Shown here piece by piece: positions 5,975-56,022 of a DNA stretch of 64,000 bases. The DNA lies in assembly GCF_036365525.1 (NCBI RefSeq), contig NC_090385.1:23430459-23494458 (forward strand), given 5' to 3'. The position numbers were made by a program, and so were the translations under genes. The notes below the pieces were generated by a model. It had not been told where the DNA came from. It ran no database searches and saw only the letters and a program-made list of their open reading frames with translations. Within the stretch, counting starts at the first letter, position 1. Each line of letters opens with the position of its first letter. The stretch is from Heterodontus francisci. Its lineage: Eukaryota.

Positions 5975-8900
5975 TGTTACCACCGACTGCTCAAGACAAA
6001 GCCCCCAATCAAAATATATGATTCTGATTGTGATGCGAGAAACACACTGTTGATTCAATCCCGCCCCTCCACCGATCACCTAACAAATATTAAACTTTCC
6101 AAATTAAAGACCCAGCCAAATTGTACCATCTATTAACCCCCGAATGAGGCTAACCAAACCAGGTGTCTTTAGATCAATAAATTAATTGCTTAATTAGAAA
6201 AACTAAATTCTTAAACACTACTACGATATAAACAACATTTTAAATAGAAAAAAATAGTGTCCTTGCAGATTTACGCTCATGCTGAAGTGGACTCTTCCAA
6301 TGTGGGACAGTCTAAGGTTGCTTGAAGATGGGGGAAAAAAAAGGTTCTTCAATAGTAGAACGTGGTCTAATTCAGCAGTTGAACTGATGCTCTTCTTTTC
6401 CAGCGATGAATTTCAGCAATTACAGTTCAGTAGTTAAAGGAATTTGGTTATTTTCTTTTAAGAAATTAATCTGACTTGACATCAGAATTCTGAGAATATA
6501 ATAAATAGGATTTAAATAAACCAAAAGAGAGCTCTAATTTCCTTCAGTATATGCTGGTCCAGCTGTCTGTGTATCTCTGTTAACTGTGTCTCAAAAGCCA
6601 GATTTTCAGCTAGTTTCAAATGTCAATCGGCAACATTGTATCTCGTGTCCTTGGTCCTGAGTGGCTGTATCCTACGGCAATAAGAATGTATTCTTTGGCT
6701 CAGTCCCTGGAGCTTAGGAGCATGCAGGTGGCGGAAAGCGTCATAGACAAGAGTTTTAGAGAAGTGGTTACACCCAAGGTGCAGGCAGATAGATGGGTGA
6801 ACGCTAGAAGGGGCAGTCAGTCAGTGCAGGAATCCCCTGTGGCTATCCCCCTCTCTAACAAGTATACCGTTTTGGATACTGTTGAGGGGGATGGCCTATC
6901 ACGGGAAAACAGCAGCAGCCAGAGCAGTGGCACCACGGCTGGCACTGTTGTTCAGCAGGGAGGGACAAAGCGCAGAAGAGCAATAGTTATAGGGGACTCT
7001 ATAGTCAGGGGCACAGATAGGCGCTTCTGTGGACGTGAAAGAGACTCCAGGAAGGTATGTTGCCTCCCTGGTGCCAGGGTCAAGGATGTCTCTGAACGGA
7101 CAGAGGGCATTCTGAAGGGGGAGGGTGAACAGCCAGAGGTTGTGGTACACATCGGTACCAACGACATAGGCAGGAAGAGTGCTGAGGTCCTGCAGGGGGA
7201 GTTTAGGGAGTTAGGTAGTAAAAAAACAGGACCTCTAGGGTTGTAATCTCTGGATTACTCCCTGTGCCAGTGAGGCTAGAAATAGGAAGATAGTGCAGCT
7301 AAACACGTGGCTGAGCAGCTGGTGTAGAAGGAAGGGTTTCAGATATCTGGACCATTGGGCTCTCTTCAGGGACAGATGGGACCTGTACAAGAAGGACGGG
7401 TTGCATCTAAACTGGAAGGGCACTAATATCCTGGCTGCAAGGTTTGCTAGCGTCACTCGGGAGGGTTTAAACTAGTGTGGCAGGGGGGTGGGAACCAGAG
7501 CAGTAGGACAGCTAGTGAAGTAAATGAGGAGGACATAGTAAATAAGGCCAGTAGGACTAAGAGGAAGAGCAGGCAGGGAGATGTTGCTGAGCACAGCGGG
7601 ACTGGTGGTCTGAAGTGCATTTGTTTCAATGCGAGAAGTATAACAGGTAAGGCAGATGAACTTAGAGCTTGGATTAGTACTTGGAAATATGATGTTGTTG
7701 CTATTTCAGAGACTTGGTTGAGGGAAGGGCAGGATTGGCAGCTAAATGTTCCAGGCTTTAGAAGCTTCAGGCGGGATAGAGGGGGATGTAAAAGGGGTGG
7801 GGGAGTTGCATTACTGGTTAAGGAGAATATTACAGCTGTACTGCGGGAGGACACCTCAGAGAGGTCATGCAGTGAGGCAATATGGGTGGAGCTCAGGAAT
7901 AGGAAGGATGCAGTCACGATGTTGGGGGTTTACTACAGGCCTCCCAACAGCCTGCGGGAGGTAGAGGAGCAGATATGTAGACAGATTTTGGAAAGATGTA
8001 AAGATAACAGGGTTGTAGTGGTGGGTGATTTTAACTTCCCCAATATTGACTGGTACTCACTTAGTGCTAGGGGCTTGGACGGGGCAGAATTTGTGAGGAG
8101 CATCCAGGAGGATGCTTGAAACAGTATGTAGATAGTCCAACTAGGGATGGGGCCATTCTGGACCTGGTATTGGGGAATGAGTCCGGCCAGGTGGTCGAAG
8201 TTTCAGTGGGAGAGCATTTCGGGAGCAGTGACCATAATTCCATAAGTTTTAAGGTACTTGTGGATAAGGATAAGAGTAGTCCTTGGGTGAAGGTGCTAAA
8301 TTGGGGGAAGGCTAATTATAACAATATTAGGCAGGAACTGAAGAATTTAGATTGGAGGCGGCTGTTTGAGGGTAAATCAACATCTGACATGTGGGAGTCT
8401 TTCAAACGTCAGCTGATTAGAATCCAGGACCAGCATGTTCCTGTGAGGAAGAAAGACAAGTTTGGCAAGTTTCGGGAAGCTTGGATAACACGGGATATTG
8501 TGAGCCTAGTCAAAAAGAAAAAGGAAGCATTTGTCAGGGCTGGAAGGCTAGGAACAGATGAAGCACTTGAGGAATATAAAGACAGTAGGAAGGTACTTAA
8601 GCAAGGAGTTAGGAGGGCTAAAAGGGGTCATTAAAAGTCATTGGCAAACAGGATTAAGGAAAATCCCAAGGCTCTTTATACATATATAAAGAGCAAGAGG
8701 GTAACCAGGAAAAGGGTTGGCCCACTCAAGGACAGAGATGGGAATCTATGCGTGGAGCCAGAGGAAATGGGTGAGGTGCTAAATGAGTACTTTGCATCCG
8801 TATTCACCAAGGAGAAGGACTTGGTGGATGATGAGCCTAGGGAAGGGAGTGCAGATAGTCTCAGTCATCTCATTATCAAAAAGGAGGAGGTGTTGGGTGT

Positions 8901-10585
8901 CTTGCAAAGCATTAAGGTAGATAAGTCCCCAGGGCCTGATGGGATCTACCCTAGAATACTGAGGAGGCAAGGGAAGAGATTGCTGGGGCCTTGACAGAAA
9001 TCTTTGCATCCTCATTGGCTACAGGTGAGGTCCCAGAGGACTGGAGAATAGCCAATGTTGTTCCTTTGTTTAAGAAGGGTGGTAAGGATAATCCAGGAAA
9101 TTATAGGCCGGTGAGCCTTACGTCAGTGGTAGGGAAACTATTAGAGAGGATTCTTCGGGACAGGATTTACTCCCATTTGGAAACAAATGAACTTATTAGC
9201 GAGAGACAGCATGGTTTTGTGAAGGGCAGGTCATGTCTTACTAATTTGATTGAGTTTTTTGAGGAGGTAACGAAGATGATTGATGAGGGAAGGGCGATGG
9301 ATGTTGTCTATATGGACTTTAGTAAAGCCTTTGACAAGGTCCCGCATGGCAGACTGGTGCAAAAGGTGAAGTCACACGGGATCAGAGGTGAGCTGGCAAG
9401 ATGGATACAGAACTGGCTCAGTCACAGAAGACAGAGGGTAACAGTGGATGGGTGTTTTTCTGAATGGAGGGATGTGACTAGTGGTGTTCCGCAGGGATCA
9501 GTGCTGGGACCTTTGCTGTTTGTAGTATATATAAATGATTTGGAGGAAAATGTAGCTGGTCTGATTAGTAAGTTTGCGGACGACACAAAGGTTGGTGGAG
9601 TTGCGGATAATGATGAGGATTGTCAGAGGATACAGCAGGATATAGATCGGTGGAGACTTGGGCGGAGAAATGGCAGATGGAGTTTAATCCGGACAAATGT
9701 GAGGTAATGCATTTTGGAAGGTCTAGTGCAGGTGAGAAGTATACAGTAAATGGCAGAATCCTTAGGAGTATTGACAGGCAGAGAGATCTGGGCGTACAGA
9801 CCCACAGGTCACTGAAAGTGGCAACGCAGGTGGATAAGGTAGTCAAGAAGGCATACGGCATGCTTGCCTTCATCGGTCGGGGCATAGAGTATAAAAATTG
9901 GCAAGTCATGTTGCAGCTGTACAGAACCTTAGTTAGGCCACACTTAGAATATTGCGTGCAATTCTGGTCGCCACACTACCAGAAGGACGTGGAGGCTTTG
10001 GAGAGGGTACAGAGGAGGTTTACCAGGATGTTGCCTGGTCTGGAGGGCATTAGCTATGAGGAGAGGTTGGAAAAACTCGGATTGTTTTCACTGGAACGAC
10101 GGAGGTGGAGGGGCGACATGATAGAGGTTTACAAAGTTATGAGCAGCATGGACAGAATGGATAGTCAGAAGCTTTTTCCCAGGATGGAAGAGTCAGTTAC
10201 TAGGGGACATAGGTTTAAGGTGCGAGGGGCAAAGTTTAGAGGGGATGTGCGAGGCAAGTTTTTTACACAGAGGGTGGTGAGTGCCTGGAACCTGCTGCCA
10301 GGGGAGGTGGTGGAAGCAGATACGATAGCGACGTTTAAGAGACATCTTGACAAATATATGAATAGGAAGGGAATAGAGGGATATGGGCCCCGGAAGTGCA
10401 GAAGGTGTTAGTTTAGGCAGGCATCAAGATCGGCGCAGGCTTGGAGGGCCGAATGGCCTGTTCCTGTGCTGTACTGTTCTTTGTTCTTTGTTCTTGTTGC
10501 CTTAAAGCAGTACTGATCCTGTTACAGCCTTAAAGGCACACTGCATACTTCCCGGAAAAGAAATAAAAACTACAGGATCATAACA
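5975..10585. mobile_element. Solo LTR (about 830 bp) split by a CR1 insertion
   Basis: TGTTA at 5975 and TAACA at 10581-10585, with a 4-bp TSD CTAT at 5971-5974 and 10586-10589; shares motifs with 37931-38949. Confidence 0.7.
6714..10495 (+). mobile_element. Near full-length CR1 LINE (ORF1 esterase domain, ORF2 APE-RT)
   Basis: ORF1 SGNH/GDSL blocks IVIGDSIVRG, VVVHIGTND and DGLHL; ORF2 CFNARSI, SETW, YRPP, GDFN, SDHN and RT motifs; (TGTTCTT)n tail; several frameshifts. Confidence 0.95.
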
Positions 10586-13420: not shown

Positions 13421-13439
13421 TAGCTAAAATTGAATGTTT

Positions 13440-13743
13440 TAAAATTCATTCATAGGATGTGGGCATCGCTGACTAGGACAGCATTTATTGCCCACCCCTA
13501 ATTGCCCTTGAGAAGGTGGTGGTAGCTGCCTTCTTGAACTGCTTCAGTCCATGTGGGGTGGGTACACCCACTGTGCTGTTAGGAAGGGAGTTCCAGGATT
13601 TTGACCCAGCGACAGTGAAGGAAGGGCGATAAAATTATTAGTCAGGATGGTGTGTGGCTTGGAGGAGAACTTGCAGGCAGTGGTGTTCCCATGCAACTGC
13701 TGCCCTTGCCCTTCTAGGTGGTGGAGGTCGCAGGTTTGGAAGG
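13440..13743 (-). mobile_element. Family B LINE 3' end
   Basis: Reverse complement matches about 39345-39645, including the CAAGGGCAATTAGGG...TGAATGAA tail. Confidence 0.85.
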
Positions 13744-13878
13744 TGAGGTGAGAGTGACTGCCCTCGACATCAAGGCAGCATTTGACCATGTATAGCATCA
13801 AGGAGCCCTAGCTAAACTGGAGTCAATGGGAATCAGGGGGAAAACTCTCTGCTGATTGGAGTCATACCCCACACAATC
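13744..13878 (+). mobile_element. Family B LINE internal RT fragment, inverted relative to its neighbours
   Basis: Matches about 37485-37615 (EVRVTALDIKAAFD..HQGALAKLESMGI). Confidence 0.85.
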
Positions 13879-14805
13879 GTACCTGCTTCCACCACCTCCC
13901 CCGGCAGCAAGTTCCAGGCACTCACCACCCTCTGTGTAAAGAACTTGCCTCACACATCCCCTCTAAACTTTGCCCCTCTCACCTTAAACCTATGTCCCCT
14001 AGTAACTGATTCTTCCACTCTGTCCATGCCGCTCATAACTTTGTAAACCTCTATCATGTCGCCCCTCCACCTCCGTCGTTCCAGTGAAAACAATCCGAGT
14101 TTATCCAACCTCTCCTCATAGCTAATGCCCTCCAGACCAGGCAACATCCTGGTAAACCTCTTCTGTACCCTCTCCAAAGCCTCCACGTCCTTCTGGTAGT
14201 GTGACGACCAGAATTGCACGCAATATTCTAAGTGTGGCCTAACTAAAGTTCTGTACAGCTGCAGCATGACTTGCCAATTTTTATACTCTATGCCCCGACC
14301 GATGAAGGCAAGCATGCCGTATGCCTTTTTGACTACCTTATCCACCTGCATTGCCACTTTCAGTGACCTGTGGACCTGTACGCCCAGATCTCTCTGCCTG
14401 TCAATACTCCTAAAGGTTCTGCCATTTACTGTATACTTCCCACCTGCATTAGACCTTCCAAAATGCATTACCTCACATTTGTCCGGATTGAACTCCATCT
14501 GCCATTTCTCCTCCCAAGTCTCCAACCGATCTATATCCTGCTGTATCCTCTGACAATCCTCATCATTATCCGCAACTCCACCAACCTTTGTGTCGTCCGC
14601 AAACTTACTACTCAGACCAGCTACATTTTCCTCCAAATCATTTATATATACTACAAACAGCAAAGGTCCCAGCACTGATCCCTGCGGAACACCACTAGTC
14701 ACATCCCTCCATTCAGAAAAGCACCCTTCCGCTGCTACCCTCTGTCTTCTGTGACTGAGCCAGTTCTGTATCCATCTTGCCAGCTCACCTCTGATCCCGT
14801 GTGAC
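13879..14805 (-). mobile_element. CR1 internal RT fragment without a 3' tail
   Basis: ORF 13950-14702 is nearly identical to the 9375-10325 part of the CR1 at 6714-10495. Confidence 0.95.
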
Positions 14806-15348
14806 TTGATATTACGTGGAGTGAATCGAATGGCTGAAAACTGTCATCTGTGATGCTGGGGACTTCAGGTGGAGGCCAAGATGGGTCATCCACTCGGCAC
14901 TTCTGGCTGAAGATTGTTGCAAGTACTTCAGCCTTATCTTTTGCACTGATGTGCTGGGCGCCCCCATCATTAAGAATGGGGATATTCGTGGAGCCTCCTC
15001 CTCCTGTTAGTTGTTTAATTGTCCACCACCATTCATGACTGGATGTGGCAGGGCTGCAGAGCTTTTATCTGATCTGGTTGTGGCATCGCCTCGCTCTATT
15101 ATATGCTGCTTATGCTGTTTGATACGCAAGTAGTCTTGGGTTGTAGCTTCACCAGGTTGACACCTCATTTTGAGGTATGCCTGGTGCTGCTCCTGACGTG
15201 CCTTCCTGCACTCTTCATTGAACTAGGGTTGATCCCCTGGCTCGCTGGTAATGGTAGAGTGGGGGTTATTCCGGACATGAGGTTACATATTGTGGTTGAG
15301 TACAATTCTGCTGCTGTTGATGGCCCACAGCACCTCATGGATGCCCAA
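14806..15348 (-). mobile_element. Family B LINE internal fragment
   Basis: Reverse complement matches about 35590-36040 plus 37016-37105. Confidence 0.85.
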
Positions 15349-15359
15349 TCAGATCAGAA

Positions 15360-16670
15360 TCGGTTTTCACTTCCTCAATGTCAGACCTTCTCTTACTGAT
15401 CCCCATTGTAAATAACTCAGCCCACTTTAAGTGTATTTTCTCAAGTCAATTTCTTGCATCAGGGAGATTTGTTCCCTCCTCCTACGACCTATAATAAGAA
15501 GCATCATTGTATTCCACCCTAACACTAACTTCACCTAACACTGGGATACTGTTATTGGAATAACTAGTCAGTTTCACACCAGCTTTCCTTAAGGGAATGT
15601 GGCTTTGGAACTTTTTGTACTCTCCTTCCGAGGTAACAGACACTGCTGCAGCTGTATCAACAATGAAAGTAAATTGCGAATCTCTGACTTTCATTTTTAC
15701 CATGGCCACTGGACTTATATTCTCAGCCCTTTAACTCTCATCTTCCACGTGCTGTTTTTCTTGCTCACTGATTGAGTACAACTCTTGATCTTCCTGCTCG
15801 ACAACATCAACTTCCGTTTCCATATCTATCATGTGCGCATTTGAGGACTTCCAGGCTCCTGAACTAGCTTTAGGTCTACTATGACCTTGACCTGGAGCTT
15901 TACCATGACCTGGAGCAGTACTGTTTCCTCCACTACTGGATATGACAGACTTTCCCTACAGGCACTTTGACTGGAAATGGGGGCATTTAGATGGTTGGTG
16001 TCTATCATGGCAAATGTAGTATCTAAATTTCTGACTCTGTGTCTATAAACTTGGCTGCTGTTGCCTGATTCCTGCTGAAATTCAGTGGACCTCCCTGCTG
16101 GCTCAGGAAAATAACTTGCTTACAATCTCTTAAGAACTTCTTACTCTCTCTTCCTGCCTTTTCCATGGCTGTGGCCTCATCGAAGGCCTCCTTCCACGTC
16201 AGCTTAATTTCCTTTACTCAAAGCTTGGCCTGCATTTTACTGTTTTTAGACCTCCAACGAATGTTTCTGTAAGGTTGACTTCTAAGTTTGCGCCATAACC
16301 ACAGTGATGAAAGTTTCTTTAATTCAAGAATACAATCTGCAATAGACTCACTTGGGAACCGCTTCCTTTTATGCAATTCAACTCACATGGCAATTTCATT
16401 CTTAGTTGTGCTATAACATAACTCGAGAATCTCATTAATTTCAAAATAGTCCAAAGTATTGAGGCCTCATGGGCAACATTAGTTAAACACCACCTCAAAA
16501 GCATCTGGCCCCATCATGGTGAGAAAAACTTTCACTTTATCCTCATCCACTATTTTATTAGCTTTTAGCCAAATGTGTAACCTTAGTTCATAATTACACC
16601 AGTCCTTTTTATTAGGGTTGAATTCCCCCATTGTCCCAAAATACGTCTCCAGTGCCATTTTTTTTTCAAT
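15360..16670 (-). pseudogene. Gypsy gag and aspartic protease remnants
   Basis: Gag N-terminus (FGTMGEFNPNKKDWCNYELRL..WLKANKI) and protease motif FIVDTAAAVSV..SYSNNSIPVLG. Confidence 0.85.
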
Positions 16671-34365: not shown

Positions 34366-36043
34366 CCAATCATTTTAAAATCATCCTCCGCCATTTCCAC
34401 CACCTCCAGCGTGATGCCACCAAACACATCTTCCCCTCCCCTGTCAGCATTCCGAAGGGACCATTTACTTCGCGACACCCTGGTCCACTCCCCACACAAG
34501 GCAGGGAGGCAGTGGCATAGCGGTAATGTTACAAGACTAGTAACCCAGAGCCCCAGGCCAATGCTCTGAGCTGAAGGTGAAATTTGAATTCAATTAATAA
34601 ATCTGGAATTAAAATCTAGTCTAATGGTTACCATGAAACCATTGTTGATTGTTGTAAAAAACCATCTGGCTCACTAATGTCCTTTAGGGAAGGAAGTCTG
34701 GCCTACATGTGACTCCAGACCCACAGCAATGTGGTTGACTCTGAAATGGCCTAGCAAGCTACTCAGTTATATCAAAACACTACAAAAGGAAAAGGAATGA
34801 AACCGGACGCACCACCCGGCATTGACTGAGGCACTGGAAACGACAACGGCAAACCCAGCCCTGTCAACCCAGCAAAGTCCTCCTCACTAACATTTGAGGG
34901 CTTGTGCCAAAATTGGGAGAGCTGTCCCACTGAGTAGTCAAGCAACAGCCTGACCGTCATACTCACTGAATCATACCTTACAATGTCTTTGACACCGCTA
35001 TCACCATTCCCGGATATGTCCTCTCCCACCAGCAGGCCAGACCCACCAGATGTGGCGGCAAAATGGCATACAGTCAGCAAGGAATTGTCCAGAGATCCTC
35101 AACATTGACTGCAGACCCCACGAAGTCTCAGGGCATCAGGTCAAACATAGGCAAGGAGACCTCCTGCTGATTACCACCTACTGCCCCCACCCCAGCTGAT
35201 AAATCAGTGCTTCTCCATGTTGAATACCAATTGGAAGAAGCACTAAGGGTAGCAAGGGCACAAAATGTACTCTGGTCAGGGAACTTCCATGCCCATCACC
35301 AACAGTGGCACCACTACTGACTGAGCTGGCTGGGTGCTAAAGGATATAGCTGCTAGACTGGGTCTGCGGCAGGTGGTGAGGGAACCAAGATGGAAAAACC
35401 TACTTGACCTTGTCCTCACCAATCTATCGGTCGCAGATGCATCTGTGCATGACAGTGTTGGCAGGAGTGACCACTGCACAGTCCTTGTGGAGATAAAGTC
35501 CCGTCTTCACACTGAAGGTACCCACCATCGTGTTGTGTGGCACTACCACAGCGCTAAATGGGATAGATTTCGAACAGAGCTAGCAACTCAAAACTGGGCA
35601 TCCATGAGGCATTCTGGGCCATCAGCAGCAGCAGAATTCTATTCAAACACAATCTGCAACCTCATGGCCCGGCATATACCCCATTCTACCATGACCATCA
35701 AGCCAGAGGACCAACCCTGGTTCAATGAAGAAGGGTACGCCAGGAGCAGCACCAGGCATACCGAAAAGTGAGGCGTCAGCCTGGTGAAGCTATAATACAG
35801 GACTACTTGTATGCCAAACAGCAGAAGGAGCATGCAATAGACAGGGCTAAGTGATCTCACAACCAACGGATCAGATCCAAGCTCTGCAGTCCTGCCACAT
35901 CCAGTCATGAATGGAGGTGAACAATTAAACAACTAACAGGAGGAGGAGGCTCCACAAATATCCCCATCCTCAATGATGGAGGAGCCCAGCGCATCAGTGC
36001 AAAAGACAAGGCTGAAGCATTTGCATCCATCTTCAGCGAGAAG

Positions 36044-37016
36044 TAGCACAGAGTCATATAGTTTTACAGCACAGAAACAGGCCCTTCGGCCTAACACATC
36101 TGCACCGACAGCAAGCACCCATCTAATTTAATCCCATTTTCCCGCACTTGGCCCATAGCCTTGTATGCTATGGTGTTTCAAGTGCTCATCTAAATGCTTC
36201 TTAAATGTTGAGGATTCCTGCCTCTACCACCCCTTCAGGCAGTGTGTTCCAGATTCCAACCACCCTCTGGGTAAAAAAGTTTTTCCTCAACTCCCCTCTC
36301 CCTCCTGCCCCTTAACTTAAATCTATGCCCCCTGGTTATTGGCCCCTCCACGAAGGGAAACGGTTTCTTCCTATCTATGCCCCTCATAATTTTGTATACC
36401 TCAATCAAAAGGGCAGCATAGTGGCACAGTGGTTAGCACTGCAGCCTCACAGCTCCAGGGACCCGGGTTCGATTCTGGGTACTGCCTGTGCGGAGTTTGC
36501 AAGTTCTCCCTGTGACCGTGTGGGTTTTCGCCGGGTGCTCCGGTTTCCTCCCACAGCCAAAAGACTTGCAGGTGATAGGTAAATTGGCCATTATAAATTA
36601 TCCCTAGTGTAGGTAGGTGGTAGGAGAATATGGGATTACTGTAGGGTTAGTATAAATGGGTAGTTGTTGGTCGGCACAGACTCGGTGGGTCGAAGGGCCT
36701 GTTTCAGTGCTGTATCTCTAGATAAAAAATAAATCAGGTCCCCCCTCAGTCTTCTCCGCTCCAAGGAAAACAACTCCAGCTGATCAAGTCTCTCTTCATA
36801 ACTGAAATGCTCCAGCCCAGGCAACATCCTGGTGAATCTCCTCTGCACCTTCTCCAGTGCAATCACATCCTTCCTATAGTGTGGTGACCAGAACTGTACA
36901 CAGTACTCCAGCTGTGGCCTAACCAGCGTTTTATACAGCACTAACATAACCTCCCTGCTCTTATATTCTATGCCTCGGCTAATAAAGGCAAGTATCCCGT
37001 ATGCCTTCCTAACCAC
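36044..37016 (-). mobile_element. CR1 3' fragment nested in family B
   Basis: ORF 36636-37031 has RPQLEYCVQFWSPHY; tail at 36044-36070. Confidence 0.9.
36411..36725 (+). mobile_element. HE1-type V-SINE nested in CR1
   Basis: A-box TGGCACAGTGG, B-box GGTTCGATTC; near-identical to 682-993. Confidence 0.9.
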
Positions 37017-37930
37017 AAGTGGATGATCCATCTTGGCCTCCTCCTGAGGTCCCCAGCATCACAGATGCCAGCCTTCAGCCAATCTGATTCACTCTACGTG
37101 ATATTAAGAAACGGCTGAAGGCACTGGATACCGCAAATGCTATGGGCCCTGACAACATTCCAGCAATAGTACTGAAGACTTGTGCTCCAGAACTAGCTGT
37201 GCCCCTAGCCAAGCTGTTCCAGTACAGCTACAAGACTAGCATCTACCCAGCAATGTGGAAAATTGCCTGGGTATGTCCTGTCCACAAAAAGCAGGACAAA
37301 TCCAACCCGGCCAATTACCACCCTATCAGCAAAGTGATAGACGGGGTCATCGACAGTACCATCAAGTGGCACTTTCTCAGCAATAACCTGCTCACTGACG
37401 CTCAGATGGATTCTGCCAGTGCCACTCAGCTCCTGACCTCATTACAGCCTTGGTCCAAACATGGACAAAAGAGCTGAACTCTAGAGGTGATGTGAGAGTG
37501 ACTGCTCTTGACATCAAAGCAGCATTTGACAGAGTATGGCATCAAGGAGCACTAGCAAAACTGGAGTCAATGGGAATCAGGGAGAAAACTCTCTGCTGGT
37601 TGGACTCATACCTAGCACAAAGGAAGATGGTTGTGGTTGTTGGAGGTCAATCATCTCAGCTCCAGTTCATCACTACAGGAGTTCTTCAGGGTAGTGTCCG
37701 AGGCCCAACCATCTTCAGCTGCATCATCAATGACCTTCTCTCCATAAAGGTCAGAAGTGGGGATATTTGCTGATGATTTCACAAAGTTCAGCACTATTCA
37801 CGATGACTCGGAAACTGAAGCAGACAATGTCCATATGCAGCAAGACCTGGACAACATTCAGGGTTGGGCTGATAAGTGGCAAGTAACATTCGTGCCACAC
37901 AAGCGGCGGGCAATGACCATCTCAAACAAG

Positions 37931-38949
37931 TGTTATGACCAAGGTGGGACGAGCGCACTGTTTATTCTACTTCCACTTCTCCACGGATCACTACGTATAT
38001 TTAAATTTTTTCCCACTTACTGGCACGGTCAATCATAGACTGTACTTTTATCCCAGAATAAAAAACACCAACCAGGTTTCTTTAATAAACAACAAAATGA
38101 TGAGATTATAAAACAAGGCTTAACCAGTAATGAAATAAAGCGTAAACACACAAATATGAAAGTTCACTTTTTTACCTTCGCCCCTCACACACACAACAAA
38201 ACTATAGGGGATTTTTGTTTACAAGTGTTATAAAAAAAAAAGAAAGAGACAAATAAAACAGTTCGGCTGAATACTTGCTCATTCTTGAGGAAAGACGGAA
38301 AGATGTCTTTTGTTTTGGTTTGGCGTTCCAAATGCATCTCGACGGCTGTCACTGGGATCTCCCTAAAGCAGTTCTTGCCAGGCGATGACAATCAGTTTGG
38401 GTAGGCTTTGCAAGACATGCAGGAACATAAGTTACAGATAGGCCTTACAGGAGAAATGCAGCAACAGGGTTTTCAGTTCCCAAACACATGGGATATGCAG
38501 GGTTTCAAATACAGGAGGAAAGAGGAGACTAACACATTGGATATACAGGGTTTCTTTCCGAGAGAGAGAGAGAGAGAGATGAGCTGGGGTTTTTTTTTTT
38601 TAAAGCAGGCAAAAACCAACCGTCTTTTGTAACAATTCAAAAAGTGAAACCAAAAACATTCCAGAAGTCAAGCCTCCTGACCTCTACAAATCTTGACCTG
38701 TCACTTCTCTGTAAACATCTTCTCCAAGTCAAATCAAAACAACAAGCTCCCTACTGGTATTTGATCTGAAAACAGGTGCCTTCCAGCAAGGGCTTGCTAA
38801 CAAGCCAAGTCCAGGAACCTTCTGGTGACTTCTTTTTAAAAAAACACAAAGTTCAGCATCTCTTCAAGCTTCCAGATGAATCAATGTCCATAATTCAACT
38901 ATAAGTCCTTAAAACATATTTTACAAAAAACAGATTCACTCTCGTAACA
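37931..38949. mobile_element. Solo LTR (about 1 kb) nested in family B
   Basis: TGTTA...TAACA termini; the LINE frame resumes after it; TSD imperfect; related to 5975-10585. Confidence 0.7.
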
Positions 38950-40327
38950 TGAGAGAATCTAACCATCTCCCGTTGATGATCAATGACATTACCATCGCTG
39001 AATCCCTCACTAACATCCTGGGTTACCACTGACCAGAAACTGACCTGCAGTAGCCATCTCAATACCGTGGCTACAAGAGCAGGTCAGAGGTTGGGAATTT
39101 TGCAGTGAGTAACTCACCTCCTGTCTCCTCAATGCCTGTCCACCATCTTCCACTTGGCTGGATGAGTGCAGCTCCAACAACACTCAAGAAACTCAACATC
39201 ATATAGGACAAAGCAGCCTGCTTGGTTGGCACCCCATTTACCACTTTCAACATTCACTCCCTCCATCACCGACACAGTGGCAGCAGTATGTGCCATCTAC
39301 AAGATACACTGCAGCAACTCACCAAGGCTCCTTCAACAGCACATTTCAAACCCACGACCTGTGCCACCTAGAAGGACAAGGGCAGCAGATACATGGGGAC
39401 ACCACCACCTACAAGTTCTCCTCCAAGCCACACACCATCCTGACTTGGAACTATATTGCTGTTCCTTCATTGTCGCAGTGTCAAAATCCTGGAACTCCCT
39501 TCCTAACACGGTGGGTGTAACTACACCCCATGGACTGCAGCAGTTCAAGAAGGCAGCTCACCAGCACTTTCTCAAGGGCAATTAGGGATGGACAGTAAAT
39601 GCTGGCCTAGCCAGCAACGCCCACATCACATGAACGAATTTTTAAAAAACGCAAGAGGTGTAATACCTGCCCTGTTACTTTCTCTCTTCTCACCGTCCAA
39701 GGTCCCAAACACTCCACCAGCGATTTACTTGCATACTTTCAATTTAGCATACGGTATTTGCTGCTCACAATGCAGTCTCCTCTATACTGTGGAGACCAAA
39801 CGCAGATTGGGTGATCGGTTTGCAGAGCACCTCCACTTGGTCTCCAAGCATGACCCCGAGCTTCTGGTTGCTTGCCATTTTAATTCACCACCCTGCTCTC
39901 AAGCCCACATTTCTGTCCTTGGTCTGCTGCAGTGTTCCACTGAAGCTCAACGCAAACTCGAGGAACACCACCTCATCTTCTGATTAGGCACTCTGCAGCC
40001 TTCTGGACTCACTGAATTCAACAATTTCAGACCATGAGACCCATTTTTTTTTTTATATATACTTTCTTTTTTTTTTAATTATTTTTTTAAACCATATGCT
40101 AGTCTTAAACTTGCTTTTCAGGTTTTTGCTTTTGGACAGAGCTGTTCATTATTCTGCCATCAGCACTCTCTCTAGACTCATGCTTTGTCTTTTACTACAA
40201 CTATTTAGCACTCCATTTGCATTCTGTTCCATAACATTTGTCATTTAATCTCTCCTGCTCTCTGTCCTATCACAGATCTTCCTTTGTTTATGTTCCCCTC
40301 CCCTCTTTCACTTGCTCAAAGACTGTT

Positions 40328-40370: not shown

Positions 40371-40799
40371 TTCTCTCTACACAAATGTTGCCAGACCTGC
40401 TGAATATTTCCAGCACTTTCTGTTCTCATTTCAGAGTTCTGGCATCCACAGTATTTCGCTCTTTCTTTAAAACTAGTGTGCTCTGGTTCTTGACCCTTTC
40501 ACCAATGGGAACAGTTTCTCTAGATCTACTCTGTTCATGATTTGGACCACCTCCATCAAATCTCCTCTCACCTTTCTCTTCTCCAAGGAGAACAACCCCA
40601 GGTAGCTATCTTCATAATTGAAGTCCTTCATTCTGGAACCACTCGTGAATATTTTCTGCATGCTCTCCAATGCCTTCACATCCTTCCGAAAACGTGGTAC
40701 CCAGAATTGATCACAATACTCCAGTTGGGGCCGAACCAGTGTTAAAAAAGGTTCAGTGTAACTTCCTTGCTTTTGAACTCTATGCCTCTATCTATTACT

Positions 40800-42665
40800 T
40801 TTTAAAATTAGTTTGTGGGATGTGGGCGTCACTGGCGAGGCCAACATTTATTGCCCATCCCACTTGCACTTGCGAAGGTGCTGGTGAGCTGCCTTCTTGA
40901 ACTGCTGTAATCCATGTGGGGTAGGTACTCCCACAGTGCTGTTAGGAAGAGAGTTCCAGGTTTTTATGACCCTGCGACAGTGAAGGAACGGCAACACAGT
41001 TCCAAGTCAGGATGGTGTGTGGCTTGGATGGGAACTTGCAGGTGGTGGTGTTCCCATGCATCTGCTGCCCTTGTCCTTCTAGGTCGTAGAGGTCGTGGGT
41101 TTGGAACGTGCTGTCTGAGGAGCCTTGGTACATCTTGTAGATGGTGCACACTGCTTCCAGTGTTTTGGTGGTGGAGGGAGTGAATCTTTGTAGGTGGGGT
41201 GCCAATCAAGCGGGCTGCTTTGCCCTGGATGGTGTCGAGCTTCTTGAGTGTTGTTGGAGCTGCATCCATCCAGGCAAGTGGCGAATATTCCATCACACTC
41301 CTGACTTGTGCCTTGTAGATGGTGGACAGACTTTGGAGAGTCAGGTGAGTTACTCGCCACAGGATTCTTAGCCTCTGACCTGTTCTTGTAGCCACGGTGT
41401 TTATATGGCTACTCTAGTTCAGTTTCTGGTTAATGGTAGCCCCTAGGATGTTGATAGTGGGGGATTCAGTGATTGCAATGCCATTGAATTTCAAGGGGAG
41501 ATGGTTATATTCTCTCTTGTTGGAGGTGATCATTGCCTGGCACTTGTGTGGAGCGAATGCTACTCACCACTTATCAGCCCAAGCCTGGATATTGTCCAGG
41601 TCTTGCTGCATTTCCACATGGACTGCTTCAGTATCTGAGGAGTCACGAATGGTGAACAATATGCAATCAGTGAACATCCCTACTTCTGACCTTATGACTG
41701 AAGGAAGATCATCAATGAAGCAGCTGAAGATGGTTGGGCCTAGGACACTACCCTGAGGAACTCTTGCAGTGATGCCCTGGTGCTGAGATAATTGACCAAC
41801 AACCACAACCATCTTTCTTTGCGCTGGGTACAACTGGGTACAGCAGAGAGTTTTCCCCGATTCCCACTGACTCCAGTTTTGCTCGGGCCCCTTGATGCCA
41901 TACTCGGTCAAATGCTGCCTTGATGTCAAGGGCAGTCACTCTCACCTCACCTCTGGAGTTCAGCTCCTTTGTCCATGTTTGAACCAAGGCTGCAATGAAG
42001 TCAGGAGCTGAGTGGCCCTGGCAGAACCCAAACTGAGCCTTAATGAGGTTATTACTAAGCAACTGCCGCTTGATAGCACTGTCAATGACACCTTCCATCA
42101 CTTTACTGATGATTGACAATAGACTGATGCGGTGGTAATTGGCCGGGTTGGACTTCTCCTGCTTTGTGCGTACAGGACATACTAAAGCCTGGTCACTCAA
42201 CCCGAGCCCAACTAGACGCAACTATACGTGTCAGGTCAAAATTCTGAATCCAGCATTCGGGCTCGGGTTGGGTCGGGCTGGACACTGCTTCCGGGAAGTC
42301 ACAGGATCAGGCTTACCCATGATTCCCTACAACTCTGGCTGCAGGAATAGCCTGCTGCCGGAAGGAGATTCGGGTCTGGTGCGAAAAAAAAATTAAAGGG
42401 CTCGGGTTCAGGTTGGCTGTGGTCGAGTCGGGCCCGGGTCGGATTTTAATTTTATACCTGAGCCAGGCTTTAGGACATACCTGGGCAATTTCCCACATTG
42501 CTGGGTAGATGCCAGTGTTGTAGCTGTACATGAACAGCTTGGCTAGGGGCGCAGCAAGTTCTGGAGCACAGATCTTCAGTAGTTTTGCTGGAATGTCGTA
42601 AGGCCCATAGCCTTTGCAGTATCCAGTGCCTTCAGTAATTTCTTGATATCACGTGGAGTGAATCT
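40800..42665 (-). mobile_element. Family B LINE, 5'-truncated
   Basis: ORFs 41748-42221 and 41564-41929 ([28 protein letters not shown]); tail at about 40800. Confidence 0.9.
42183..42472. mobile_element. hAT-superfamily MITE (290 bp)
   Basis: Perfect TIR TAAAGCCTGG/CCAGGCTTTA, perfect 8-bp TSD GGACATAC (42175-42182 and 42473-42480), and subterminal CCCGA/TCGGG repeats. Confidence 0.9.
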
Positions 42666-42914
42666 AATTTATGAAGCCCAGGATCCTACATGCCTCATTA
42701 AGCATTTTCTTAACCTACCCTGCCATCTTCAATGATTTGTGTACATACACCCCAGGTCCCTGTGCTCTTGCCCCCTTTATTTTATATTGCCTTTCCTCGT
42801 TCTTCCTACCAAAGCACATCACTTCACATCTCTGCATTAAATTTAATCTGCCACAAGTCTGCCCATTACACCAGTTTGTCCTCTTGAAATCTGTCACTAT
42901 CCTCCTCACAGTTC

Positions 42915-50406: not shown

Positions 50407-50745
50407 GGGCGGCACAGTGGTTAGCACCGCAGCCTCACAGCCCCAGCATCCTGGGTTCAATTCTGGGTACAGCCCGTGCGGAGTTTGCAAGTTCTCCCTG
50501 TGACCGCGTGGGTTTTCGCCAAGTGCTCCGGTTTCCTCCCACAGCCAAAGACTTGCAGGTTGATAGGTAAATTGGCCATTATAAATTGCCCCTAGTATAG
50601 GTAGGTGGTAGGGGAATATAGGGAAGGTGGGGATGTGGTAGGAATATGGGATTAATGTAGGATTAGTATAAATGGGTGGTTAATGGTCGGCACAGACTTG
50701 GTGGGCCGAAGGGCCTGTTTCAGTGCTGTATCTCTAAATAAATAA
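50407..50745 (+). mobile_element. HE1-type V-SINE
   Basis: Near-identical to 682-993, with a longer purine-rich internal repeat; TAAA tail. Confidence 0.9.
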
Positions 50746-52161
50746 GTAAAAGGCATTTGTCATATGCACTCTTTTTCTGCTTCTATGCCTTTTGTCATCC
50801 AGGGAGCACCAGCTTCATTGGTCCTACTTCTCCCCTTTGTGGGAATGTCCCTCGGCTGTATCCGAACTATCTCCTCTTTGAAGGCAGCCCATTGTTCAAT
50901 TCCAGTTTTGCTATCCAATCTTTGATTCCAATTTACCTGGGCTAGATCCATTCTCGTCTCATTGAAATTGGCCCTACATCAAAATTCTTTTACTCCAAAT
51001 TGCTCCTCGTTCTTTTCCATAGATAAGCTAAATCTTATGATACTATGATCACTGTCCCCCTAAATGTTCCCCTACTGACACTTGACCCACTTGTCCCAAC
51101 TCCTTCCTCACTGGACTGGAAACATACTGATCCAGAAAATTCTTATGAACACACTTCAGAAACTCTTTCCCCCTCTCTGCTCTTTACACTATTAATATTC
51201 CAGTCTTTATTAAGATAATTTAAAAATCCCACTATACTCTATAGTTTCTGCATCTCTAATTTCCTTGCAAATTTGTTCATCTATCTTTCCCACTAGTTGG
51301 TGGCCTATAGAACGCACCTAGAAGTGTAATGGTACCTCTGTTGCTTCTTCGCTCTAAACAATTAGATTCTGTCCTAGACCATTTCAGGACATCCTCTCTC
51401 TCCAGTCCTGTAATATTCTCCTTTATCAATACTGCCACCCCTCCTCCCTTCTTTCATTCCCTATCTTTCCTAAACACCTTGTATTCAGTAATATTTAGTA
51501 CCCAGTCCTGTCCTTTTTTGTGCCAGCTCTCCATTATCACCACAGCAACATATTCCCACATGGCTTCCTTTGCCTGCAGCGTAGCAACTTTATTTACCAC
51601 ACCCTGCGTTCCCATACATGCACAGTAACCCCAATTTAGGCCTTGCTGGGGGTGGGGGGGTTGTGGGGGAGAAAGCTGGGGGAAAGGGGAAGCAATACAA
51701 AATAGCTGTTGCAGTCAGACTCTGCATCCCTTAAGAGGGGGCAGATAACCATGAAACTAAAAGGAGGCCCAAGAAGTCTTATGAAAGAAAAATTCAATAG
51801 GAAGAAATGTTTCCCCTTAAAGTATACAAACATAAAAGGAAACCATCCAACAGAAAAGATGTTTCTACCCAGAAAGCCAATTCTCTCCAGTGTAACATGC
51901 ATGACATAACATGGTGATGGCCTACAGCTAAACCAATCCAAAATTCTTGAGGAAGGTAGTTTATACCAGGTAGAACTTCAAAAAAGCCAAAACAAGTTTC
52001 CACCAAACCATTATTAGTTATGTACTGAATAACATCCCACAGAATTTCATGACAAGTGAATCACCTATGCCTCAAATTATTCTTATAATCTTTAGTCCCA
52101 CTTCCTGCCAGATAATCTTTAAACTTATTATTGAAAGGAGCTTAATGAATTCACACTGATT

Positions 52162-55613: not shown

Positions 55614-56022
55614 GACCGGAATTTTATGTCCCATGCAGGAGTGGCCTGGAGGCCGGGGGGGTGGGGGGTGGAGGGGGAGGGCGGGGTGGGATGTGGGTGC
55701 TGCTGGCCATGTTAGCATTTATTGCCCATCCCTAATTGCTGCAGTTCATGTGGGGTAGGTACACCCACAGTGCTGTTAGGAAGGAAGTTCCAGGATTTTG
55801 ACCCCATGATAGTGGGAGGCAGGGGGTGCCGTACCTGTTGCCTTCCCGCCCAGGCTGCAAGTTTATGAGTGGTAATGACGACAAATGGTCCATCCGCCCC
55901 AGGCCAATTAAGGTCCTGAGCCACATAAAATCAGTGCATGGCTTTCAGGCCCGCTGAGGTGGGCTCACCCCTTACTTTTTGGATGGTGGGCAGGGCCTCC
56001 AGCCTGATGTAAAAATCTGGCC
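55614..56022. mobile_element. MITE with 3-bp TSD, containing a family B 3' fragment (about 55688-55815, minus strand)
   Basis: TIR GACCGGAATTTT / AAAATCTGGCC with ATT flanks; a similar terminus AAAATCCAGCCC occurs near 62550. Confidence 0.5.

Follow-up and report, generated by a model that had tools for sequence, protein, structure and literature searches.

Coding long interspersed elements (LINEs) and short, non-coding interspersed elements (SINEs) are set apart by the polymerases assigned to them, RNA polymerase II (Pol II) to the former and RNA polymerase III (Pol III) to the latter. Zenon, a LINE family of the CR1 group, has been described in five elasmobranchs as a poly-A-tailed element that lacks ORF1 (Stuart et al. 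2026, PMC13343379), and the accessible part of a whale shark preprint gives the name CR1-Zenon only. Here, we analysed a 64-kb stretch of the Heterodontus francisci genome (the window, to which all coordinates refer) and searched the 6.0-Gb genome with parts of one element in it, a Zenon copy on the plus strand at 34503-39650, split by two later insertions. This copy, from a family abundant in sharks and rays, is decayed and dead. Judging from sequence features, the 3.3-kb unit that it represents has at its start a head derived from tRNA-Thr, with A and B boxes, from which it was likely transcribed by Pol III.

As far as the accessible parts of the sources go, several described systems come close. 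The published elasmobranch consensuses, Zenon-1 (CarCar, RhiTyp, ScyCan, HypSab) and SquAca Zenon-1 to -3 (PMC13343379), belong to the same family, being about 3.3 kb long, without ORF1 and poly-A tailed. Lepidopteran Zenon and the Persaeus SIDEs (PMC6740152) likewise comprise a single-ORF (open reading frame) element of about 3.3 kb and repeated internal-deletion derivatives retaining both its 5′ and 3′ parts; Persaeus, however, is described with neither tRNA similarity nor a Pol III promoter, whereas the shark deletion products are tRNA-SINEs from birth. In the bipartite tRNA-SINEs of RTE and Vingi LINEs (Kojima 2018, PMC5786205) and in ZenoSINE (PMC6685494), a small-RNA head is likewise joined to LINE 5′ and/or 3′ parts and mobilised by a LINE, but there the head was added to a non-autonomous derivative, while in the shark Zenon the coding element itself is headed. 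RTE-1_DAn and elements related to it (PMC5786205) are, as here, LINEs with a tRNA-like sequence, although of a different clade; a literature search brought up no account of that sequence. Finally, the T+ SINEs B2, Dip and Ves (PMC8466645) are of Pol III type with AATAAA and an A-tail, and can be polyadenylated; they are non-coding and about 200 nt long, whereas the shark Zenon is coding and has a run of four or more Ts before its A-tail in just 11 of 48 copies (3′ ends).

A preliminary description of this DNA had proposed that a SINE-like head and an ORF1-less LINE form one chimeric unit, and this is borne out: head, body, an ORF for an apurinic/apyrimidinic endonuclease (APE) and a reverse transcriptase (RT), and A-tail constitute one mobile unit throughout the family. 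Loci were the best-scoring matches of genome searches rather than a random sample. With a query spanning the body–ORF junction (10,854 candidates, 40 scored), all 40 scored matches crossed that junction; with an APE-only query, which avoids selecting for the head (8,742 candidates, 29 non-self loci scored), 25 loci, of which one carries an interrupting insertion, reached the tRNA head, and the remaining four were 5′-truncated with unrelated flanks, two in the leader and two at the ORF start. None of these 29 loci showed ORF1 or a different sequence upstream. In a search with the head only, the youngest head type continued into the ORF in 24 of 24 loci, and the 5′ boundary of the family alignment is sharp, at a GGGG start. 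The family consensus, built by script from genome copies (3.29 kb; 3285 nt), consists of the head (1-95), the body (to about 321), one 975-codon ORF, a 55-nt 3′ untranslated region (UTR) and an A-tail. Moreover, head, body and ORF start match the Zenon consensuses of white shark, whale shark, catshark, dogfish and stingray, among which the body is near-invariant (PMC13343379 supplement, first 400 nt, compared by eye). Free head-plus-tail SINEs are common (19 of 29 loci in one search with the head alone, 15 of 24 in another), as would suit an independent SINE joined to a truncated LINE at this locus, by neighbourhood or template switching; the recurrence of the joint in both locus sets and in the consensuses of the five other species refutes such a one-off chimera and leaves it a negligible probability.

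The unity of head and LINE follows from this recurrence of the junction across copies and not from target-site duplications (TSDs). The bracketing pair previously suggested here (ACACAAG/ACGCAAG, six of seven positions) is unsupported: across 28 complete copies, of which 13 are full-length and 15 short, the best TSD scores were none in 17, 4 nt in nine, 5 nt in one and 7 nt in one, no better than in mismatched flank pairs. The Zenon family makes no TSDs.

The tRNA-derived head of this copy occupies 34503..34572, as set by alignment and the sharp 5′ boundary, and the Pol III A box at 34513..34523 and the anticodon-arm motif at about 34531-34545 were correctly recognised in the preliminary description, as was the lack of a B box, which results here from a 25-nt deletion after 34567. 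In the family consensus, both boxes are intact; 40 of 78 heads have an exact A box, two main B-box variants account for 54 of the 78, and the head with its boxes is retained across three successive subfamilies. ARAGORN at a relaxed threshold reads the consensus head as a tRNA-Thr(AGT)-like cloverleaf. It shares 50 of 74 positions with a genomic tRNA-Thr(AGT), while its variable region holds a 20-nt hairpin insert ahead of the T arm. In a comparison limited to Thr and Lys types the Thr types score higher. ARAGORN found no tRNA in the window, Rfam gave chance matches only in the region, and the Rfam tRNA model had no match on three intact heads; two intact heads gave weak tmRNA matches. Measured against the definition of a SINE2, the element has the tRNA-derived head with A and B boxes, but at 3.29 kb with a 975-codon ORF it is neither short nor non-coding, which its deletion derivatives alone are.

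Behind the head, the SINE-like body noted earlier extends over 34573..34768 by alignment, as a conserved 5′ UTR with predicted hairpins; the minimal SINE has its joint at the 3′ end of this body (consensus 321). Five short body motifs were without a true match in the hagfish SINE supplements. In the hagfish and coelacanth Zenon consensuses the head is absent (PMC13343379 supplement, first 400 nt, by eye), nor was it found in the invertebrate relatives L161 and L164; a Zenon already without ORF1 probably acquired it a single time, in the elasmobranch lineage. The body shows a weak similarity to the leader of invertebrate Zenon (P 0.03 for L161; 0 of 300 shuffles for L164, mainly in the N-terminal extension of the ORF), which is no more than a hint. 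L161 (about 430-750) and L164 (about 365-600), with neither tRNA head nor ORF1, share a conserved leader of roughly 250 nt that contains GC-rich hairpins and is a candidate for a structured element acting in translation or as a promoter.

In vertebrates, T4 and degenerate T5 act as Pol III terminators (PMC3141230, accessible part), and a 3.3-kb Pol III unit must therefore lack them. The sense strand of the 3285-nt consensus contains no T4 run, against 14 A4, 12 C4 and 9 G4 runs, the older-subfamily consensus likewise has none, and individual copies (193 kb) carry 0.22 T4 against 4.85 A4 per kb. The ORF has four T3 runs where 12.7-12.8 are expected from the same protein and codon usage, a count that no codon shuffle reached in sets of 5000 and 2000 and that is equal to the number of TTT phenylalanine codons. 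Two CR1 families of the same genome served as controls, and show no T-run depletion relative to their own shuffles: TT observed/expected is 0.67 in Zenon versus 1.23 and 1.11 in the controls, whose ORFs of 2745 and 1842 nt hold 11 and 4 T4 runs (11 and 5 over the whole consensus), and windows with at least five Ts in six number 0 in Zenon versus 23 and 11. The depletion extends along the whole length of Zenon. Headless invertebrate relatives, too, carry T4 runs (seven in 2.8 kb in L161), with TT observed/expected of 0.93-1.06 in the five closest loci. Since boxes and a T-poor strand are kept across subfamilies, the enzyme-making lineage itself has retained both, and we consider Pol III transcription of Zenon somewhat favoured by the combination of intact boxes and T-run depletion. 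As a separate observation, one CR1 control, taken from 7341-10323 of the window (L112-L135), is a young family whose copies share 97-99% identity and whose consensus has a continuous frame of 915 codons. The T-run between the TGAA end and the A-tail of Zenon copies varies from 0 to 8 (e.g. L070, L085, L087, L088 and window 39640), and may represent post-insertion slippage or a built-in terminator.

The same features would look different if Zenon were an ordinary Pol II element that took its 5′ UTR by chance from a tRNA-SINE, its T-poverty stemming, for example, from avoidance of U-rich decay or splice signals; the head might then drive or enhance Pol II transcription, or its tRNA-like fold, which the consensus still adopts at a relaxed threshold, might be cut by RNase P, leaving an exact 5′ end on RNA read through from the host. 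LINEs are all taken as Pol II units in the accessible parts of PMC5786205 and PMC10886601, the AATAAA with an A-tail is in keeping with this, and the absence of T4 on its own has a P of about 0.1. Against it stand the conservation of the A and B boxes through three subfamilies and in five other species, the T-run depletion over the whole length, absent from Pol II-type CR1 controls and headless Zenon relatives, and the lack of an in-frame AUG for scanning from a cap. We therefore hold the Pol II explanation to be rather unlikely.

The coding region does indeed encode APE followed by RT with no ORF1, as first described; on three sister copies, in a scan covering the N-terminal two thirds of the ORF, Pfam matched PF03372 (Exo_endo_phos) and PF14529 for APE and PF00078 (RVT_1) for RT. 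In this copy, the ORF lies in three parts, all on the plus strand: 34755..36044, with a basic N-terminal extension lacking AUG, the APE endonuclease from 34889 and a linker, a part broken by stops and frameshifts here; 37018..37930, with the RT core; and 38946..39585, with the C-terminal region, ending in a WNSLP...FK motif of CR1-group type and a stop. This C-terminal end is short and CR1-like, as in relatives, so that the element has APE and RT without RNase H. The consensus frame of 975 codons is continuous except for a single CpG-type stop. Between the older and young subfamily consensuses, 151 sites differ; 83 of 134 changes in the ORF fall at third positions, with 76 synonymous and 47 non-synonymous codon differences, a pattern indicating that the ORF is under purifying selection between subfamilies.

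How this ORF is started is a separate matter. The ATG at 34797, earlier taken for the APE-RT start, is not that start; it opens an out-of-frame upstream ORF (34797..34937, plus strand, by frame analysis; 46 codons in the consensus) offset by one base. After a 307-nt leader in the consensus, the long ORF opens behind a TAG and crosses an Arg/His-rich extension into the endonuclease, its first methionine being residue 285. A conserved in-frame TTG after the last stop of the leader is not put forward as the start, the frame differing in the whale shark and dogfish consensuses (by eye). By eye, no slippery heptamer joining the upstream to the main frame was apparent. The invertebrate relatives have a similar basic N-terminal extension, and in one of the two that were read, L164, it is also without methionine. 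In two other CR1-group relatives, L165 (about 400-460) and L167 (about 300-350), the ORF opens with D-I-E-x-(N/H)-P-G-P just before the endonuclease, a motif that we take to be 2A-like.

Taken together, these features would fit an autonomous coding lineage that switched to Pol III and persisted in sharks and rays, with an uncapped 3.3-kb RNA, AUG-less translation in cis and SINEs arising by deletion, a reading about as likely as not. Pol III would start at the GGGG 5′ end and transcribe the whole element, selection having removed terminators so as to permit full-length reading, and would halt at the first T-run within or past the tail, while AATAAA could permit polyadenylation, as in T+ SINEs. 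The uncapped RNA might be translated without AUG, either with the help of the structured, conserved 5′ UTR or through coupling with the upstream ORF that overlaps the long frame, and the protein would bind the 3′ stem-loop, the RNA being inserted by target-primed reverse transcription without TSDs. If labour were instead split, Pol III would make only the template RNA and the SINE derivatives, and the protein would come in trans from a separate capped RNA, for example a host Pol II read-through transcript. This would account for boxes and terminator avoidance without translation of uncapped RNA, and the abundant deletion derivatives show that trans-mobilisation is efficient; yet purifying selection on the ORF is most easily maintained by cis preference, and a capped RNA would equally be without an in-frame AUG, which makes the arrangement improbable.

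Several points weigh against Pol III transcription and the coding mechanism built on it. The absence of T4 by itself is insignificant versus codon or dinucleotide shuffles (three tests, P 0.09, 0.10 and 0.18), so the case depends on the T3 and TT depletion and on two control families, both CR1; other causes of U-avoidance may be at work. The AATAAA that 40 of 48 copies retain, 40 nt ahead of the tail, fits Pol II equally well, and the stingray consensus has a degenerate B box in its 5′ 400 nt. The RNA data consist of assembled contigs, which show neither start nor strand; in contigs from four runs, the Zenon family and the minimal-SINE joint are present in three other organisms. Pol III processivity reportedly confines SINE-like elements to a length of about 100-1300 nt (Kojima 2024, PMC10886601, accessible part). 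Finally, no translation start was found, no in-frame AUG lies ahead of the endonuclease, and no fully intact copy was seen, the longest open frame (513 aa) ending at a locus edge.

The preliminary description had left it between deletion derivative and head donor what the free SINE is, and for most short forms the former applies. In the middle-type head search, 10 of 29 loci were LINEs and 19 short; in the old-type search, 24 loci comprised 8 LINEs, 15 short forms and one unclear case. The youngest head was seen on LINEs only, apart from the single deletion copy L079, and the LINE therefore evolves its own head. The short forms join leader to 3′ end at consensus positions 321/3222, 329-335/3153-3158, 345-350/3151-3157 or 3180, 354-359/3138-3140, 398/3173 and 424/3102; several joints show short microhomology, and some recur in several copies. 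All but the 321/3222 form contain pieces of the start and end of the ORF and are therefore deletion derivatives, so that, on their sequence, most short SINE-like elements are internal deletions of the Zenon LINE. The minimal 321/3222 form, found with old and middle head types and in the contigs of the three other organisms, could descend from the LINE as an old deletion product or could have donated the head originally. In this copy, the minimal 3′ part that every short derivative retains is the short 3′ UTR at 39586..39650 (plus strand), with a predicted stem-loop, an AATAAA (mutated here) and, in agreement with the first description, a TGAA-type end, followed by a T5A6 tail (39630-39650); A-rich tails follow such ends in complete copies.

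The element is a member of the known elasmobranch Zenon family, with the single ORF and no ORF1, APE and RT without RNase H, and the poly-A tail that define Zenon, and the premise that absence of ORF1 is unusual was mistaken, since Zenon elements, in the available parts of PMC13343379, are universally without it. In a FastTree phylogeny using 72 of 144 RT regions, with no named Zenon reference, it lies apart from the CR1s of its host, near hydra, crustacean and butterfly elements (support 0.445), a weakly supported position that agrees with Zenon. Vingi/Ingi elements, single-ORF LINEs that likewise have deletion derivatives, are marked by an I-group RT and a C-terminal zinc knuckle. The WNSLP...FK C-terminus and the position of the RT among CR1-group sequences, far from an RNase H-bearing outgroup, do not fit that assignment. 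A search of viral contigs found no relatives.

With respect to earlier description, the sequence has thus been published as Zenon, but its head went unrecognised there: the word 'tRNA' occurs in neither the main text nor the examined supplement of Stuart et al. 2026 (PMC13343379), and 'polymerase' not in the main text. Those parts say nothing of the head or its promoter boxes, of the avoidance of T-runs, of the lack of an AUG or of derived SINEs. A literature search, with Repbase, Dfam, SINEBase, most subscription papers and bioRxiv supplements outside its range, turned up neither an autonomous LINE driven by Pol III nor any account of this head. Not recognised before are the promoter head derived from tRNA, the sense strand free of terminators, the lack of an AUG and the origin of SINEs by deletion. 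If true, a natural 3.3-kb Pol III mRNA would break the rule that divides LINEs from SINEs, put the supposed length limit of Pol III to the test, reveal cap- and AUG-independent retrotransposon translation, and open a direct path by which LINEs give rise to SINEs, opposite to the usual model in which a head is added onto a tail. Such an element would also offer a retrotransposon design that is compact and promotes itself.

The copy in the window is 84-88% identical to the family consensus and carries stops and frameshifts besides the 25-nt deletion. The first description had it inserted into Penelope, and the insertion is real. The flanking pieces, at 34440..34502 (left, by translation) and 39651..40035 (right, with GIY-YIG-like motifs by eye), both on the plus strand, belong to an element that we take, from its motifs, to be Penelope-like; Pfam had no match on the right piece. 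Two nested insertions, absent from sister copies, had been missed. The first, at 36045..37017, is a 3′ fragment of a CR1 LINE on the minus strand, itself holding a plus-strand tRNA-headed SINE at about 36411-36732, which makes four nested layers: SINE in CR1 fragment in Zenon copy in Penelope-like element. This other SINE, presumably HE1/V-SINE-like, has three copies in the window (36411-36732, 688-991 and 50411-50750). The second insertion, 37931..38945 (strand not assigned), is a 1-kb sequence bounded by TG...CA and by a near-perfect terminal inverted repeat of 8 nt, has a related piece in locus L023, and is likely, from its ends, a solo long terminal repeat.

The window, whose closest named protein matches belong to sharks, is dense with LINE fragments, among them at least four further 5′-truncated Zenon fragments, mostly on the minus strand (40799-42668, 14805-15380, 13437-13876 and 55687-55824). 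Elsewhere, two annotated shark proteins, P0006 and P0033 (storkhead-box 1-like and aldo-keto reductase-like), include pieces 74-84% identical to the Zenon ORF, which probably reflect contamination of the gene models by this LINE.

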